A stretch of 64,000 nt of DNA from Spirochaetota bacterium (lineage in GTDB: Bacteria > Spirochaetota > UBA4802 > UBA5550): NCBI GenBank assembly GCA_963663865.1, contig OY760686.1, forward strand, positions 1,056,001 through 1,120,000, read 5' to 3'. The notes under the pieces were generated by a model that was not told the DNA's origin, ran no database searches, and saw only the letters and a list, made by a program, of their open reading frames with translations. The position numbers and the translations under genes were made by a program. Shown in pieces: positions 42,299-49,533 of the stretch (position 1 is its first letter; every line of letters starts with the position of its first letter).

Positions 42299-43675
42299 AT
42301 GAAATTCTTTCAATGTCTTGCGGCGTCTTTCGATTATTTGGCGAAAAGCATCTTAATTTTCGGTGTCTTTTTCTGTGTTTCAGTTTTTTCGTCATGCGGT
42401 GATGATGATAACAGCAGCATTACACCCGGTGCTGCAAGCCTTTCGGCACTTAGAATTGGGCCGGGGAAACTTACTCCAGCGTTTAATCCGGCCATTACTG
42501 AGTACAGTACCTCAGTTGACTATTTTGCCGAAAAATTTAGGGTTACTCCTTCTGGTGATGATTCCGCAAGTGCGATTGAGGTCAACGGAGTCGGGGTTCA
42601 ATCCGGTGAGCATGCGGGTCTTGTCGCTTTGAGAGAAGGATCGAATGCGGTGGAAATTGACGTTCTTGATGTGGATGGAAACGTAAAAACCTACACTGTG
42701 AATATTACAAGAAAGACTGAGACTGAATACCCGTATTTTGAACTGGATTATACTGCCGGTCAGGATAACGAAATGACCATTGAGTATGATGGAATAGAGC
42801 GAAGATTTTTTTATTATGTCCCTGCTGATTTTGATTCAGAAGCTTCTCATTCGGTAATTGTTGTGCTTCACGGTTTCAATCAGGATGTAAGCAGTATTAT
42901 TCAGACTTATGGAAGCATGAAGACATTGGCAGACGATGATGGAACTATCATAATATTTCCTGAATCGACCGGCAGCAGTGCTGAATCAACACTGTCGTGG
43001 AACCAGCTGTATGGAGACCTCAGTTCGATTTATGAAACTCTTAATGAGGTCGATGATATAGGTTATATTTCATATCTGATTAATACAATGCTGGGAAACA
43101 TGAACGGCGATCCGGACCGGGTGTATGTTACAGGAACATCCATGGGCGGGGCAATGACTTTTGCCCTATCAACATTTATTCCGGGTAAATTCGCTGCTGC
43201 CGCGCCTGTCATAATGCAGGTAGCGCAGGATTTCGTCGCTCAATTCCAGGATGCCCAGCCGCTTCCGTATATGGTCATAACAGGAACGGCTGACCCGCTT
43301 GTCGATCCGGATGGAACTGATACCGGTACAATAAAAAATGTTTCTCAGGCAGCGAGTATTGAATACCTTAAGATAAGGAACGGCCTGACTGGGGACGGTG
43401 AAATGACAGCTCTTCCTGACACTGTAACGGAAGTATTTCAGGGAGAGGACGCCAACTCATATATTGAACAGTATGTCTGGGAAAGCAGCGCAGGAAACGA
43501 TCTTTTCTATCTGAAAGTAGTTAACGGCGGACACTGGCTTCCTTCGTATATGGGCGGTATGGCCATGGATCCCTCAAATCTTGGTGGATGGGACGGAAGT
43601 TATCTGGGGCACTGGAACAATGATTACGACGCAGCCGCAGGAATTTACAACTTTTTTATGAATTATACAAGATAG
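42299..43675 (+). CDS. Lipoprotein: cadherin-like beta-sandwich plus LpqC/PHB-depolymerase-type esterase
   Basis: Lipobox FSSC; LTPAFNP..TEY...TYTVNITR; VLHG, GTSMGG, GTADP, GGHW triad. Confidence 0.8.
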   Translation: MKFFQCLAASFDYLAKSILIFGVFFCVSVFSSCGDDDNSSITPGAASLSALRIGPGKLTPAFNPAITEYSTSVDYFAEKFRVTPSGDDSASAIEVNGVGVQSGEHAGLVALREGSNAVEIDVLDVDGNVKTYTVNITRKTETEYPYFELDYTAGQDNEMTIEYDGIERRFFYYVPADFDSEASHSVIVVLHGFNQDVSSIIQTYGSMKTLADDDGTIIIFPESTGSSAESTLSWNQLYGDLSSIYETLNEVDDIGYISYLINTMLGNMNGDPDRVYVTGTSMGGAMTFALSTFIPGKFAAAAPVIMQVAQDFVAQFQDAQPLPYMVITGTADPLVDPDGTDTGTIKNVSQAASIEYLKIRNGLTGDGEMTALPDTVTEVFQGEDANSYIEQYVWESSAGNDLFYLKVVNGGHWLPSYMGGMAMDPSNLGGWDGSYLGHWNNDYDAAAGIYNFFMNYTR

Positions 43676-43754: not shown

Positions 43755-44459
43755 TTACTGTGCGTATCCGAGCAGCTTAACGATCCACGGCGAGAACAGC
43801 GCCGTAAGGATGCCGTTCAGTGCCAGGGCGAGCCCGCCGTAAGCGCTGTGCACTTCGCCGAGTTCGGCGGCCCTTGCTGTCCCGAGGCCATGTGAGGCCG
43901 CTCCCATGGCAAGCCCTATGGCCGCCGGCTTCTTAACGCGTATAAGCTTCAGAAACGAGATTCCCATTATTGCCCCGAGAATTCCTACAGTCAGCACAAT
44001 GCCCGCGGTCAGCGGAGGTATGCCTCCCAGTGTGTCGGCAATGTCCATCGCGATGGGCGTCGTGACCGACTTTGGAGCGAGTGAGAGTATTATCTCTCTG
44101 GAAGCTCCGAATACCTTTGCGAGCACAATAACCGATACGATTCCCGTAATGCTTCCGGCAAGCATGGTCAAAATGATACCGTAACCGTTTTTTTTGATGG
44201 TCTGCAGCTGGAAGTACAGCGGAAGCCCGAGCGCGACAACCGCGGGCTGAAGCATGAAACCGATATAGCTTCCGCCCCTGTTGTACTCTTCATAGGTAAC
44301 TCCTGTTCCGAGCAGAAAAGCTATTAGAGCTATGGTAGTCAGGAGAATAGGGTTCAGGAAGAAATAGCTGAAGCGCCCGTGCAGTGTTTTGAACGAGAGG
44401 TAGAGCAGCAGCGTGAGCGTAATGGAGAAAACCTCACTTCTGAGAAAATCATGCATCAT
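43755..44459 (-). CDS. lrgB: LrgB/CidB family membrane protein
   Basis: PAVVALGLPLY, LAPKSVTTPIAM, SHGLGTARA. Confidence 0.92.
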   Translation of the reverse strand: MMHDFLRSEVFSITLTLLLYLSFKTLHGRFSYFFLNPILLTTIALIAFLLGTGVTYEEYNRGGSYIGFMLQPAVVALGLPLYFQLQTIKKNGYGIILTMLAGSITGIVSVIVLAKVFGASREIILSLAPKSVTTPIAMDIADTLGGIPPLTAGIVLTVGILGAIMGISFLKLIRVKKPAAIGLAMGAASHGLGTARAAELGEVHSAYGGLALALNGILTALFSPWIVKLLGYAQ

Positions 44460-44790
44460 CTTTACCCGCCTTCTGATAAATAAGCCCCACCACCGCAAGG
44501 ACGATCAGCGTGCTGAAAAACGACGATACGGCGATAGGCACAATTTCATCTTTGATCAGGCCGAAATATGAGAGTATGCCGACTCCCGGCGGAATAAAGA
44601 AGAAGGCCATGTTTTTGATAAAGAAATCGGATATTGACTTTATGGAATGCGGCTTTATCAGCCTGAAGTGCAGTAGCAGAGTCAGCAGAAGCATTCCTAT
44701 GACGCTTGACGGCACCGAGAGTCCGAAGAGCTTTCTGATTCCCTCTCCGGCCAGAAGGCAGCCGAATATTATTGAAGCCTGTTTAATCAT
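44449..44790 (-). CDS. lrgA: CidA/LrgA family holin-like protein
   Basis: VPSSVIGMLLL, NMAFFFIPPGVG. Confidence 0.9.
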   Translation of the reverse strand: MIKQASIIFGCLLAGEGIRKLFGLSVPSSVIGMLLLTLLLHFRLIKPHSIKSISDFFIKNMAFFFIPPGVGILSYFGLIKDEIVPIAVSSFFSTLIVLAVVGLIYQKAGKDDA

Positions 44791-45048
44791 GTTAGTTTTC
44801 TCCTATGGATATCATATTAAAACATGCGATTTTTCGCAACAAAAGAAATGAGGACCTGTGCCCTGAACAGCGAATTATTCCGTCAGGGCATTGTGCTTTT
44901 TGCGGTCATTATTGTCTGGTATGGGTGGGGATGATGTCAGCTTAATCAATTTCATTTTTTCAGAATCTATATATAATGTCTGAAAAAGTATGTCATTTTT
45001 CCTCACTGAATTACTCATAGTAAATAATGAAAGCTCATATAAAATCTT

Positions 45049-45352
45049 TGCAAGAGCCGGTGTTCAGAACTTCGCCTTCTATCTTCTCAGCGATGGAGGC
45101 AGCGGTATCAACGAAGACTGTCCGGGCGGGAAAACGTATAATGTGACAGGAATAGGGGTCGAGAATGCCGGCGCGATAGCCATGTACTCAAACTGCAACC
45201 TGCTGACCTCAAACGCGGATTTCCAGGAGTCAGCAGACGCATGGTTGCTTGCTTCATATCTCTTTTATCTTGAGGGGATGGACTGGTATCTGGATAATGT
45301 TGTTTCTACCTGGTGTGCTGTGGGGGTTATTCCTCAGTTGAATGGACATTAA
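45049..45352 (+). pseudogene. 3' remnant (about 100 codons) of an M4 thermolysin-like metallopeptidase gene, copy 1
   Basis: GVQNFAFYLLSDGG...VTGIGVENAGAI.....LLTSNADF.......WCAVGV matches the Peptidase_M4_C region; no HExxH or N-terminal part. Confidence 0.7.
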
Positions 45353-45374
45353 TATGCTTAAAGGGAGATGGAAT

Positions 45375-46469
45375 ATGAAAATAACAGCTTTAATTATATC
45401 AGCTATGTTTATGCTTATATCATGTGATTCGGACACAAGCAAATCCGTGCCGGAACAGGTTGAGCCACTTGAGGGAGTATTTGTTCTTGGCTCTGTAGAT
45501 GGGAACGTGGGTTACTGGCATGATGGGGAATGGAACCAGTGTGAGGTGCCTGTTGGAGCAGATAGCTGTTCTGGTGATTCAATTTATATTACAGAATATG
45601 ATGTTTATATTGGTGGAGGTTACAGATACGCTTATAATCAATACAATTTTGTACATGTGCCCGGTTACTGGAAGAATTTGGAATGGGAACCACTTTACAC
45701 TGCTGAACCCATAGCTAGTGCTGGAGTGTTTTCTGTGACTTCATCAGATGAAGATATTTATTTTGCCGGACATTTAAATCATGAAGCATGTTATTGGAAA
45801 AACAATGATTTAATATATTTGGATGATTTTGACAATAGTAGTGTTCTTTACAAGCTGGATCCGTACATGGAAATAACATGTATAATGTCAAATAATAACA
45901 ATATTTATGGAGCCGTTCAATCTACAAAACCAGTTTACTTTAAAAATAAAAATTTAATAAGCCTTTCAATTGATGGTGTGGGGAGTTTGGAAACAGTAAT
46001 TATGCACAATGGAGATATCTACGCTGCGGGCCGATGCCATGATGTAGAAGGTAATTATTTTACGGGTTACTGGAAAAATGATGAATGGGTAGCTCTTCCT
46101 AATCCCAATTCTGATGGGAGAATAATTATTATTACCGGTATTGCTGTTTCAGGTGATGATGTTTATGTTTGTGCTTATTCTCAGGTATATGTGGAATCTG
46201 CTCATTCTATTACAATATTAAATTATTCATCTGGATACTGGAAGAATGGTAAATGGTTTGACCTCGAATCGTCGTATGGTACCCCGAAGGCAGAGGCTAT
46301 GGTCGAACACAATGGAGATATCTACATTGTCGGAGGATGTTACAGTAATTACAACTATTCATATACCAGTCACCCTTCTTTCTATGCTGGCTACTGGAAG
46401 AACGGAGACTGGAACGAACTGGGAGTTGAGGGTGAAGATGCGCTAGCTTTTGATATAGTTGTGAAGTGA
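45375..46469 (+). CDS. Lipoprotein with seven YWKNG-type repeats (predicted 7-bladed beta-propeller), copy 1
   Basis: Lipobox LISC behind a GGAG RBS; repeats GYWHDG, GYWKNL, CYWKNN, VYFKNK, GYWKND, GYWKNG x2, mostly preceded by D(I/V)Y.xG. Confidence 0.8.
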   Translation: MKITALIISAMFMLISCDSDTSKSVPEQVEPLEGVFVLGSVDGNVGYWHDGEWNQCEVPVGADSCSGDSIYITEYDVYIGGGYRYAYNQYNFVHVPGYWKNLEWEPLYTAEPIASAGVFSVTSSDEDIYFAGHLNHEACYWKNNDLIYLDDFDNSSVLYKLDPYMEITCIMSNNNNIYGAVQSTKPVYFKNKNLISLSIDGVGSLETVIMHNGDIYAAGRCHDVEGNYFTGYWKNDEWVALPNPNSDGRIIIITGIAVSGDDVYVCAYSQVYVESAHSITILNYSSGYWKNGKWFDLESSYGTPKAEAMVEHNGDIYIVGGCYSNYNYSYTSHPSFYAGYWKNGDWNELGVEGEDALAFDIVVK

Positions 46470-46480
46470 GTCTCATCTCA

Positions 46481-46501
46481 GCCGGTCCCTTGCGGGCCGG
46501 C
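46481..46501 (+). terminator. GC-rich hairpin after lipoprotein 1
   Basis: GCCGGTCC-cttgc-GGGCCGGC; no clear U-tract. Confidence 0.45.
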
Positions 46502-46589
46502 AGCCTCATAGGTGCTTACGCCGAATTTCTGTTCGCGTTGATGTTTCCGTAAACAAGGCTGAACATGATTACTGCTAAAGTTATGTTGA

Positions 46590-46985
46590 AAAAAACCGGC
46601 AAACGATTGTCATCAAAGAATCTCAATTGCTGAACGTCAAAAATTCAATGGTAATGTATTCACAAGCGCCCCCGACTATCATGCAAGAGCTGTTGTCCAG
46701 AACTTCGCCTTCTATCTTCTCAGTGATGGCGGCAGCGGTATAAACTACGACTGTCCGGGCGGCAAGGCGTACAATGTTACCGGAATTGGAGTCCAGAATG
46801 CCGGCGCGATCGCTATGTACTCAAACTGCAACCTGCTGACTTCAAACGCGGATTTCCAGGAGTCAGCAGACGCGTGGTTGCTTGCTTCATATCTCTTTTA
46901 TCTTGAGGGGTTTGACGATTATATGGACAACGTGGTTTCCGCCTGGTGTGCTGTGGGGGTTATTCCTCAGTTGAATGGACATTAA
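46590..46985 (+). pseudogene. Start-less 3' remnant of an M4 metallopeptidase gene, copy 2 (not in the ORF track)
   Basis: Open frame ...SAPDYHARAVVQNFAFYLLSDGG...SAWCAVGVIPQLNGH*; in-frame TGA near 46587-46589 and no early start codon. Confidence 0.7.
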
Positions 46986-47007
46986 TATGCTTAAAAGGAG
47001 ATAGAAT

Positions 47008-48084
47008 ATGAAAATTTCAGTTTTAATTATATCAGCTATGTTTATGATTTTATCATGCGATTCGGATTCAGATAACACTCCGTCAGAAAGCGGGCCGGAA
47101 CAGGTTGAGCCACTTGAGGGAGTGTTTGTTTTAGGTTCTTTTGGCGGAAATATGGGTTACTGGCATGATGGTGAGTGGAATAACCTTCCGGTTTCAGATT
47201 CATGGAAAATTGGCAGAGCTTATTCATTATGTGTGTATGAAGATTCGATCTATATGGCGGGTTATGAAAGTTCTGACGGTGGTAAAAACTATAAAACGGG
47301 ATACTATGTCAACAATGAATGGGTTCAGATCAATGAGCCAAATGAATATTGGCATATATCAGATATTGAAGTTCACAACAATAAAATATATTGTGCAGGC
47401 GCATCGGGGTCTACAGCATGTTACTGGATAAACGGTGAGGTAATATTTCCTGCTGATATTGAAGGTGAATCTTATGCCAACGGGAAGATTAACTCAATAA
47501 TCGTTGAAAATGATAATGTTATAGCTGCCGGCGATAATCATGTTTTCCCAGTTTACTGGTTAAACACAGAGCCTGTACAGCTGTCTATACCTGGAGAATT
47601 AATCAATGGCAGTCTGTGGGTAGTAAGGAAATATAACGATAATATTTATACGGCAGGATGGTGTAGAAACCAGGATGGTGATTATCTTACTGGCTATTGG
47701 AGGAACGATGAATGGGTTACATTGACTAACCCGTTTTGTGAAGATGTAATACTTACGATTATCACGGGGATAGAAGTAGTTAATGATGATGTCTATGTTT
47801 GTGCATATTCTGAGGTAATAGTTGAAAGTTATTCGGAAATAACTTCAGGTTACTGGAAGAATGGAGAATGGTTTGAACTTGAGACTCCGAGAGGGACTTC
47901 AATGGCGCGAGGAATGGTAGAACATAATGGTGATATTTACATTGTTGGTTCAAGTTTTGAAAATTTTTGTAGTCTAACCGGTTCCGCATCCGCCTCTTAC
48001 GCCGGTTACTGGAAGAACGGAGAGTGGCACCCTCTTGGCGAAGAAGGAGTTCAAGCAAGTGCATTTGACATTGTCGTGAAGTAA
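47008..48084 (+). CDS. Lipoprotein with seven YWKNG-type repeats (predicted beta-propeller), copy 2
   Basis: Lipobox ILSC, AAGGAG RBS; seven repeats; paralogue of 45375-46469. Confidence 0.8.
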   Translation: MKISVLIISAMFMILSCDSDSDNTPSESGPEQVEPLEGVFVLGSFGGNMGYWHDGEWNNLPVSDSWKIGRAYSLCVYEDSIYMAGYESSDGGKNYKTGYYVNNEWVQINEPNEYWHISDIEVHNNKIYCAGASGSTACYWINGEVIFPADIEGESYANGKINSIIVENDNVIAAGDNHVFPVYWLNTEPVQLSIPGELINGSLWVVRKYNDNIYTAGWCRNQDGDYLTGYWRNDEWVTLTNPFCEDVILTIITGIEVVNDDVYVCAYSEVIVESYSEITSGYWKNGEWFELETPRGTSMARGMVEHNGDIYIVGSSFENFCSLTGSASASYAGYWKNGEWHPLGEEGVQASAFDIVVK

Positions 48085-48094
48085 TTTCTGCAAT

Positions 48095-48129
48095 GAGGCC
48101 GGCCTTTAAAGGGCCGGGCTCTTTGTTTT
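48095..48129 (+). terminator. Rho-independent terminator after lipoprotein 2
   Basis: GAGGCCGGCCTT..AGGGCCGGGCTC plus TTTGTTTT. Confidence 0.6.
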
Positions 48130-48163
48130 CCAAAACAGTTGATCATAAATCAGGGTCTTAATA

Positions 48164-49486
48164 GAGAGTATCAGATGTTTTGTGTAAATAGCCTTTGATT
48201 ATAATGGTACTCTGTCTCCAAAATATACTGCGAACTGGTTGATAGCAGCACCCCAATCTCTGATTGGCATAGTCCATTTTTTCTCGGCTTTCGTCAATGC
48301 CAAATACAGCACCTTAAAGATTGAATCATCTGTAGGAAATGCCGCTCTTTTCTGGGTTACTTTCCGTAGGCTTGAATTCAAGGATTCAATTGCGTTGGTA
48401 GTATAAATTGCTTTTCGAATATCTGCCGGATAAGCGAAAAATTCGTTGAGGTTTTCCCAATTGGCTCGCCATGACTTTGAAATCATCGGATATTTACCAT
48501 CCCACTTTTTAGAAAATTCATCAAGCGAAGCCAAACCAGCCTTTTCGGAAGGGGCAGAATATATGCTTTTCAGATCGGTACATATCGCCTTTCGTTCTTT
48601 CCATGATACATATTTTATTGAATTGCGTATCATATGAACTATGCACAGCTGAATCCTGGTCTCTGGGAATACGGCATTAACCGCATCTGGAAACCCTTTC
48701 AGTCCATCCATGCAAGCGATGAAGACATCTTCGATTCCTCGATTTTTAAGTTCATTTACAACCTGAAGCCAAAATTTAGCTCCTTCTGAATCGCCAATCC
48801 ATAAGCCTAGAACTTCTTTTTTGCCCTGCATATTGACCCCAATAGCCGTATACACTGATTTATTTGATACTTTGCCGTCAGTTCGGCCTTTGACCACGAT
48901 AGCGTCAAAATACACTATAGGGTACACAGGATCAAGTGGACGGGATTGCCATTCCAGAACATCTTTTATTATCTCATTGGTGACGGTGCTGATCAGGTCA
49001 GGGGAAACCTCTACTCCATAGATATCTTCAAGATGGCCCTGAATATCTCTGGTTGTCATTCCCAACCCGTACATCGATATGATTTTCTCATCAAACAGCT
49101 CGAATCGTTTTTGATGCTTCTTTACTATTCTGGGTTCGAATTCAGCATTACGGTCTCGAGGAATATCAATTAGAATTTCACCATTGTTTGTTAAGAGCTT
49201 CTTGCTACTTCGACCATTACGAGCGTTGGTGCTTTTGCCTGCTGATCTTTCATTTTTGTCGTAACCAAGATGTTCTGCCATCTCAGCTTTCATCGCTGTT
49301 TCGATAATCCTTTTGGTTAATTGCTGAATAAGGCCGTCTTTCCCGGTAATCTGTTCAGGTGTCAGTGCCTTAAAATCCACATCCTCAAGCAATTCATTAA
49401 TGATTGCATCTTTGTCCATAGCCATATTTTTCTCCTTATCTATTGATTAATAATATAGCTATTTACACAAATCTTTTTACACTCTC
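48164..49486 (-). mobile_element. IS256-family insertion sequence, 1323 bp, complete
   Basis: Imperfect 29-bp terminal inverted repeats (GAGAGTATCAGATGTTTTGTGTAAATAGC / rc GAGAGTGTAAAAAGATTTGTGTAAATAGC); 8-bp target duplication TCTTAATA at 48156-48163 and 49487-49494. Confidence 0.95.
48199..49425 (-). CDS. IS256-family (Mutator-type DDE) transposase
   Basis: IPRDR..EFEP, VYFDAI, CMDGLKGF, QLCIVH, IYTTNAIESLN. Confidence 0.97.
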   Translation of the reverse strand: MAMDKDAIINELLEDVDFKALTPEQITGKDGLIQQLTKRIIETAMKAEMAEHLGYDKNERSAGKSTNARNGRSSKKLLTNNGEILIDIPRDRNAEFEPRIVKKHQKRFELFDEKIISMYGLGMTTRDIQGHLEDIYGVEVSPDLISTVTNEIIKDVLEWQSRPLDPVYPIVYFDAIVVKGRTDGKVSNKSVYTAIGVNMQGKKEVLGLWIGDSEGAKFWLQVVNELKNRGIEDVFIACMDGLKGFPDAVNAVFPETRIQLCIVHMIRNSIKYVSWKERKAICTDLKSIYSAPSEKAGLASLDEFSKKWDGKYPMISKSWRANWENLNEFFAYPADIRKAIYTTNAIESLNSSLRKVTQKRAAFPTDDSIFKVLYLALTKAEKKWTMPIRDWGAAINQFAVYFGDRVPL

Positions 49487-49533
49487 TCTTAATAATCTAC
49501 ATGCTGAAACACGAGTCCATTCGGAAGTATACA

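Follow-up and report, generated by a model that had tools for sequence, protein, structure and literature searches.

Orphan 3' modules of an M4 protease–propeller lipoprotein operon in a Spirochaetota genome

In a stretch of 64,000 nucleotides (nt) from a Spirochaetota bacterium (assembly GCA_963663865.1, contig OY760686.1; hereafter the window, positions 1056001–1120000 of a single 3.16-Mb contig, 45.9% G+C), two tandem gene modules each contain the last 100–121 codons of an M4 (thermolysin-family) protease gene. A spacer of 22 nt follows, carrying a ribosome-binding site, and after it come a full lipoprotein gene and a hairpin. The two are orphan 3' modules of an intact M4 protease–lipoprotein operon located 406 kb away in the same genome. 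An intact protease allele of another assembly carries the orphan type of end, the coding sequence of the tails is constrained, and the synonymous sites of the modules bear the pattern of recombination anchored in three conserved blocks. On balance, we lean towards a reading in which the modules belong to a strain-polymorphic protease–propeller operon whose 3' end can be replaced as a package, with displaced modules that would persist, could recombine back into an intact gene and would encode a partner of the protease. Below, A1 and A2 denote the two window modules (locus A), B1 the intact operon and B2 a further orphan module (both at locus B).

The intact operon B1 (genome positions 1505771–1508808) encodes an M4 protease with the HExxH motif, an FTP propeptide and a lipobox, together with its lipoprotein. 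Directly downstream lies B2, whose tail ends at 1509391 and whose lipoprotein gene occupies 1509417–1510514. A preliminary description of the window had recognized the tandem arrangement of tail, spacer, lipoprotein gene and hairpin as well as the lack of HExxH. Repeat search, Pfam and open reading frames (ORFs) bear this out, although the count of two modules, right for locus A, rises to three for the genome. It had also anticipated that the same genome might contain an M4 gene in full with such a lipoprotein gene behind it; B1 is of this kind, with an orphan module next in line. The direct repeat between the window modules measures 300 nt at 89% identity (45049–45348 against 46682–46981, repeat search); blastn widens it to 45049–45535 against 46682–47180 (85.8% over 499 nt), through the spacer and into the start of the next gene. 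The two spacers are alike at 20 of 22 positions, and the lipoproteins of A1 and A2 are 47–50% identical.

The window tails are fragments, not enzymes. They match positions 78/80–165 of the Pfam Peptidase_M4_C profile (PF02868) with 39–41 bits (cut-off 24.4), and the HExxH motif, the Glu166-type third ligand, the propeptide, the start codon and the signal are absent from both of them and present in intact B1 and in P0138, the protein from another assembly introduced below. That the tails lack a start holds for A2, whose open frame begins at 46590 and meets its first canonical start only at 46815, but less strictly for A1, where the open frame begins at 44984 and an ATG at 44990 gives an ORF of 120 amino acids (aa), publicly annotated as protein P0136; this ATG has no Shine-Dalgarno sequence, and its frame is interrupted at B2 by a TAA seven codons in. 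Homology had been placed from the His231 motif onwards. The histidine of DYHARAVVQN does align with thermolysin His231 in the family profile alignment (numbering counted from the alignment), but A2 keeps 21 more M4 codons upstream, from 46623, and its junction differs from that of A1 and B2. The latter two share one 5' junction, including a 47-nt element absent elsewhere in the genome, so at least one module was copied after truncation. No stop codon interrupts any of the three tails.

A full-length parent of the orphan type exists in another assembly, as the preliminary description had expected of a related genome. P0138 is a 672-aa M4 protein with HExxH, encoded on a 1.82-Mb contig, and its C-terminus reads WCAVGVIPQLNGH. 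Of its last 100 residues, the three tails share 96, 96 and 95 (96 for A1), and over its full M4-like length A2 matches it at 103 of 121 residues (85%, tblastn). Within the window genome, the best match of P0138 is the B1 protease (69.6%), the other paralogues being at ~32%. Identity between P0138 and B1 is blocky, ranging in 40-residue windows from 98% down to 25%: it is 88–98% over the first ~120 residues, ~62% by residue 160, 42–72% in the catalytic part, 95% in the block after His231 and 48% at the end. P0138 was found by looking up the cluster represented by the 120-aa ORF of A1. A word-based search for longer tail-bearing proteins had returned only the B1 protease as close (79% to the tail) and missed it. 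In metagenome contigs, a P0138 pattern gave 57 matches with no relative among them and a 26-nt conserved tail block gave none; the 25-nt tail end had no match in genome contigs. A phmmer search of P0138 against PDB sequences (E 1e-5) gave no match, whereas the profile search did align thermolysin.

The tails diverged under constraint at the protein level, as had been proposed from a hand count of about 20 synonymous and 8 non-synonymous differences between A1 and A2. By the Nei–Gojobori method the synonymous figure stands at 20.2, while the non-synonymous one rises to 11.8, giving a ratio of non-synonymous to synonymous divergence (dN/dS) of 0.14 (Fisher p 2e-7). Across the three pairwise comparisons of A1, A2 and B2, synonymous divergence (dS) was 0.38–0.58 and dN/dS 0.07–0.14 (Fisher p 2e-7 to 5e-13), with 0.10–0.14 for A1 against the other tails. 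The 44 codons upstream of any canonical start gave 0.08–0.11, and the 35-codon end 0.07–0.41. On a three-branch star, our own arithmetic from the pairwise counts yields dN/dS of ~0.24, 0.12 and 0.08 per branch; these ratios come from few sites, and recombination blurs branches. A tail dN/dS near 1, as for long-dead fragments, is excluded. Two histories are compatible with this: each tail may for most of the time have been part of an intact gene, or selection may reach it even now. The lipoprotein genes are intact, and their dN/dS of 0.26–0.43 indicates that they are under purifying selection.

Divergence at synonymous sites is distributed unevenly along the modules. We computed pS (the synonymous difference per site) by block for six module pairs, including the intact gene. 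It was 0.34–0.48 in tail codons 1–65 (all six pairs), 0.25–0.39 in lipoprotein codons 1–45 and 0.28–0.32 in the last 34 lipoprotein codons of A2, B1 and B2; it reached 0.56–0.84 in the lipoprotein cores and 0.61–0.69 between the orphan-type protease end and the B1 end. Since selection on the protein cannot yield such a pattern at synonymous sites, neighbouring blocks differ in age. Over positions 47297–47746 (450 nt), modules A2 and B2, at loci 406 kb from each other, show 3 differences, against 8–34 per 100 nt in the flanks, and their longest identical run is 231 nt (P ~7e-14). A permutation test on polymorphic sites detected significant shared tracts in five of the six module pairs, A1–B1 being the exception. 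These patterns indicate that the modules are related by homologous recombination at three conserved blocks, namely a 65-codon protease block, the first ~45 codons of the lipoprotein gene, and its last ~30 codons together with the terminator. The anchors enclose two variable blocks, the protease end (35 codons) and the lipoprotein core. The proposal that the modules are recombination cassettes agrees with these data, the tail block and the lipoprotein ends being far less diverged synonymously than the cores.

We then compared strains. Sequencing runs X1 and X3 match the window exactly, and run X8 represents a strain ~4% diverged (181 differences over 4097 nt of the left flank). At locus A, X8 has the same two modules, with the lrgA-side junction of A1 unchanged, and it is without the IS256-family insertion sequence (IS) present at the window site (joint of 48101 to 49528). 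Its lipoprotein A1 differs at 18 of 1349 nt, and the centre of its lipoprotein A2 at 68 of 702 nt. The P0138-bearing assembly encodes lipoproteins P0139 (A1 type, 99% in the core), P0019 (A2 type, 83%), P0021 and a truncated P0022 (two further types). Since the P0139 signal region is encoded at a loose end of X8 (45450), X8 resembles this assembly. The layout of locus A is stable between the two strains; the A2 sequence and the intact operon differ, the divergence of the operon between strains far exceeding the ~4% seen in the surroundings of locus A. Together, the two strains hold five lipoprotein core types, 32–47% identical, with conserved ends. The expected variation among strains in lipoprotein content was found, but not the expected variation in cassette order, as locus A keeps its layout at ~4% divergence. 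Several candidate rearrangements were rejected: the apparent joints 46878–47053, 48159–44984, 46324–47989 and 47139–47848 are locus B contigs placed on paralogues at 85% likeness, and the high-depth X8 joints 45552–47844 and 47885–48007 were ascribed to a diverged lipoprotein gene resembling P0021.

The AlphaFold model of the B1 lipoprotein (mean predicted local distance difference test score 90.8) is all-beta with seven four-stranded blades, and the repeat consensus comprises seven DVY...GYWKNG units. The partner lipoprotein is predicted to be a seven-bladed propeller of ~360 aa from a family without a name: Pfam and NCBIfam hold none for it, and the Atlas gives only unnamed clusters. Foldseek returned only generic Kelch-type propellers, with Keap1 Kelch domains at E ~1e-8, a template modelling (TM) score of 0.43–0.52 and 13% identity; Pfam Kelch_1 and Kelch_2 scored 13.9 bits, below their cut-offs of 20.1 and 21.3. 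Homologues are unannotated ~360-aa proteins, mostly from spirochaete assemblies. No M4 gene was found beside propeller relatives at 34 outside loci, nor a propeller gene beside M4 relatives at 74 outside loci; the M4–propeller pairing was found only in this organism. A complex prediction for the mature B1 protease (residues 210–649) with its own lipoprotein (18–355) scored 0.00, a run without controls that carries no weight either way.

The pairing is repeated within the genome. Besides the three tails, there are eight M4 genes of full length, and five of these each precede a co-directional lipoprotein gene of the propeller family, with lipoboxes in the partners. Spacings include ~20–56 nt and an overlap; in four pairs the lipoprotein gene lies between a few bases and ~56 nt downstream, and in the fifth it is farther off, behind an in-frame TGA. 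The five paired proteases are only 25–36% identical to each other, and the lipoproteins about as low, with the same gene order throughout; the pairing is therefore old and has been kept. Protease heads that the tails could complete were ruled out, since eight FTP propeptide hits stand against eight full C-domains and no head occurs without a tail. Among 40 relatives of the same family or order, none has an M4 C-domain, and the nearest outside M4 genes, 30–37% identical, come from Patescibacteria, Bacteroidota and actinomycete assemblies. With eight M4 genes here, none in the relatives and distant matches outside, a lineage-specific expansion after acquisition by transfer is suggested.

The parent operon is probably phase-variable. 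An 8-nt unit in 2.4 copies (genome 1505701–1505770) separates the signal peptide of the B1 protease from an ATG that has a ribosome-binding site. This ATG is 70 nt 5' of the annotated start and hence out of frame, so that the protease gives the appearance of a phase-variable gene that is switched off in this assembly; the small number of repeat copies makes the indication for B1 a weak one. Two sister M4 genes carry, in the same position, GTCTCAG three times or a TC run of ~15 units.

Other rearranged or unusual neighbourhoods were seen around M4 genes. A tandem duplicate of ~3.2 kb (genome 2364942–2371584) contains, once per copy, an M4 gene that a single in-frame TAA interrupts shortly past HExxH; downstream of each comes a gene for a lipoprotein of 348 aa outside the propeller family. 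Directly 5' of B1, an ORF at 1504116–1505492 with a Walker A motif was labelled UvrD/Rep-like helicase from its N-terminus. A solo propeller lipoprotein gene (1614041–1615144) lies 2 kb from the M4 pair at 1609090–1611941, with an integrase/transposase-like ORF between them, and the region 1612290–1615144 may be another rearranged module.

How could such modules have arisen? Recombination of an incoming allele into the operon would have displaced the resident 3' end, with its lipoprotein gene, to a downstream position, a route that the excerpted source puts forward for orphans of contact-dependent growth inhibition (CDI) loci (PMC7662968). One displaced module would then have been copied to locus A. 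The modules may have been kept because their lipoprotein genes are still used, and the 65-codon block would allow a tail to be recombined back into an intact gene, by which both the 35 C-terminal protease residues and the lipoprotein encoded downstream would change. The lipoprotein would be a surface-anchored partner of the protease, our leading guess being a self-protecting inhibitor; what points to a partner role is the conserved gene order, together with both proteins being lipoproteins.

A number of findings weigh against this replaceable-end reading. The last 35 residues of the three orphan tails are nearly the same, yet two lipoprotein types follow them, which argues against a matched pair of end and lipoprotein. 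The cassette lipoprotein genes are complete, have their own ribosome-binding sites and could work independently of the tails, and four other propeller lipoprotein genes in the genome have no recognizable M4 remnant upstream (candidates there were rejected, best E 0.13). Locus A adjoins no intact M4 gene, and its layout is identical in the ~4% diverged strain. The intact B1 gene carries the other end type, and the tails differ from it by a dS of 0.45–0.64, implying no recent exchange within that block. No recombinant or switching event was seen in the consensus contigs, which could not have displayed rare variants. Because the word-based search missed P0138, claims of absence drawn from it are weak. 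The part in which the modules act as a switching reservoir is one that we put forward only tentatively.

A stronger version of the replaceable-end reading is unlikely in our estimation: a replaceable-tip system on a surface protease, in which the 3' end of a phase-variable M4 gene and its cognate lipoprotein gene would be swapped with stored modules, the lipoprotein would act on its protease as an inhibitor specific to the allele or as a docking partner, and stored lipoproteins would protect against the proteases of rival strains. If true, it would amount to a protease-based system of kin discrimination or surface variation.

Plain decay is an alternative that we regard as rather unlikely, though not negligible. 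It takes the modules for leftovers of duplicated operons whose protease genes were deleted, so that only the lipoproteins matter, the tails are a junk 5' leader and the mosaics reflect concerted evolution. Such a history would accommodate the want of a conserved start codon (the A1 ATG frame being broken by the TAA in B2), the unchanged layout of locus A in X8, the solo propeller lipoprotein genes elsewhere in the genome and the common junction of A1 and B2, by which at least one module was copied after truncation. It fits poorly with tails whose dN/dS of 0.07–0.14 (~0.08–0.24 per branch) is far from 1, which are all three free of stop codons and share 95–96% of their protein sequence with the intact allele found in a second strain, and whose synonymous divergence is much below that of the adjacent lipoprotein cores.

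We see even less room for an orphan immunity array, in which the lipoproteins would be specific inhibitors of M4 alleles, displaced copies would shield the surface from the proteases of sister strains and the tails would be scars of displacement. The generic Kelch-like fold of the propeller is unlike the inhibitors named in the precedent papers, no delivery route of the protease into or onto other cells is known here, and scars alone leave the constraint on the tails unexplained. What speaks for the array is the tight protease–lipoprotein linkage in five old paralogous pairs, the lipoboxes in both partners, the strong divergence of protease and lipoprotein alleles between strains, and precedents of lipoprotein or small-protein inhibitors encoded beside their protease, the potempins (PMC9890683, abstract) and emfourin. 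Lastly, translation of the tails on their own as small helical proteins (the thermolysin C-terminal subdomain, or a 56-residue product from a conserved internal ATG) is very improbable despite the strong protein-level constraint, the annotation of the ATG-initiated 120-aa ORF of A1 as P0136 and the existence of thermolysin fragment 255–316 as a solved chain (1trl) that reportedly folds on its own, because no canonical start precedes the constrained first 44 codons in A2 or B2, Shine-Dalgarno sequences are absent before both the A1 ATG and the internal ATG, and constraint is equally strong upstream and downstream of the latter.

The anatomy of these modules is a known one, that of the orphan modules of polymorphic toxin loci; similar modules occur in Rhs and Maf loci. 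As described in the excerpted source, CDI orphan modules have this same anatomy, a start-less 3' fragment with a conserved coding stretch (cdiA-CT) followed by a partner gene (cdiI), and some sit inside full-size genes of other strains (PMC7662968). The likeness to that account extends, for B2 behind B1 but not for A1 and A2 at 406 kb, to a tandem place directly behind an intact locus, and further to the same fragment ending a full-size gene of another strain (here P0138) and to insertion sequences nearby. The differences lie in the parent, the tip and the partner. The parent here is an M4 protease of Sec/lipoprotein type, not a toxin with a dedicated delivery system; the variable tip spans only 35 residues, all within the M4 helical subdomain; and a lipoprotein of ~360 aa takes the place of a small cytoplasmic immunity protein. 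In addition, 406 kb separate two of the three orphans from the intact operon. New here are the lipoprotein protease as parent, the tiny tip and the large propeller partner; a protease-tail and lipoprotein system of this kind was not found described in open-access literature text.

Start-less, coding-competent donor copies with conserved frames around variable segments, used in segmental gene conversion, are also known from Neisseria pilE/pilS and from Borrelia vlsE, and in the latter another spirochaete uses the same logic. The donors here differ in that each includes a complete downstream gene with its own ribosome-binding site and in that there are only three cassettes; the high-frequency one-way switching known there is not claimed here. 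Protealysin and emfourin offer the example of an M4 protease and a partner gene in one operon, emfourin being a small inhibitor; unlike our lipoproteins, it is not a lipoprotein, shows no likeness in fold and comes with no cassette array. Protealysin is described as intracellular in the excerpted source (PMC9505478). The closest precedent for the possible role of the lipoprotein is the KLIKK/potempin set of Tannerella forsythia, in which several protease genes each have as neighbour a co-directional gene whose product, an outer-membrane lipoprotein, is a specific inhibitor of that protease and shields the surface of the producer (PMC9890683, abstract). An adjacent, co-directional lipoprotein gene is common to both systems. 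By the same abstract, potempins are beta-barrels of 98–132 residues encoded upstream of the peptidase, whereas the proteins here are propellers of 355–375 residues encoded downstream; inhibition is known there and is a guess here, and the abstract describes no orphan fragments (PMC9890683).

Arrays of orphan 3' fragments with partner genes, a hallmark of polymorphic toxin loci, thus occur here on a thermolysin-type lipoprotein protease, which suggests that displacement and reuse of gene ends may be more general than toxin biology. The pairing also gives a first functional handle on an unannotated family of propeller lipoproteins found in spirochaetes and some other phyla, and the protease–partner relationship can be tested at the bench.

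The coordinates of the features at locus A are given in Table 1. Modules A1 and A2 are flanked by lrgAB-like genes and a CorA-like gene. An Rfam search of 44400–48300 (E up to 1) gave no match, and a promoter scan was uninformative (15 sites against 10.0 ± 3.7 expected).

Table 1. Features at locus A, in positions of the window.
Feature	Position	Strand	Evidence and remarks
Junction element of ~47 nt, 5' of tail A1	44979..45026	+	Common only to B2; 3 differences in 47 aligned nt; whole-genome fuzzy search
Tail A1: last 100 codons and stop of the M4 C-domain, from the residue after the His231 equivalent	45050..45352	+	PF02868, 40.8 bits
Spacer A1, 22 nt, Shine-Dalgarno AGGGAG	45353..45374	+	Sequence reading
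Lipoprotein A1, 364 aa, lipobox LISC, predicted seven-bladed propeller, GYWKNG-repeat family	45375..46469	+	ORF list
GC-rich hairpin after lipoprotein A1	~46480..46501	+	Sequence reading; without T run, hence unlisted by the terminator scan
Tail A2: last 121 codons and stop of a P0138-type M4 gene, with DYHARAVVQN including the His231 equivalent	46623..46985	+	tblastn with P0138; 40.9 bits in the Pfam/genome search
Spacer A2, 22 nt, Shine-Dalgarno AAGGAG	46986..47007	+	Sequence reading
Lipoprotein A2, 358 aa, lipobox ILSC, predicted propeller	47008..48084	+	ORF list
Terminator hairpin with T run and conserved 3' flank common to locus B modules	48099..48159 (hairpin 48099–48117)	+	Homology ends where the IS starts
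IS256/Mutator-family IS, not part of the cassettes	48158..49492	-	Transposase 48199–49425, 35-nt inverted repeats; PF00872, E 1.5e-122

The IS256-family element sits exactly at the end of the conserved 3' flank of module A2, and its end recurs at least twice elsewhere in the genome. On the other side of the modules, positions 42299–43675 encode a protein of 458 aa, secreted or lipoprotein-like, in which a cadherin-like beta-sandwich domain (E 1.1e-13) is fused to a weak alpha/beta-hydrolase or esterase region. Its gene adjoins the LrgA/LrgB-like genes at 43755–44790, a label given by sequence reading, which are on the opposite strand.

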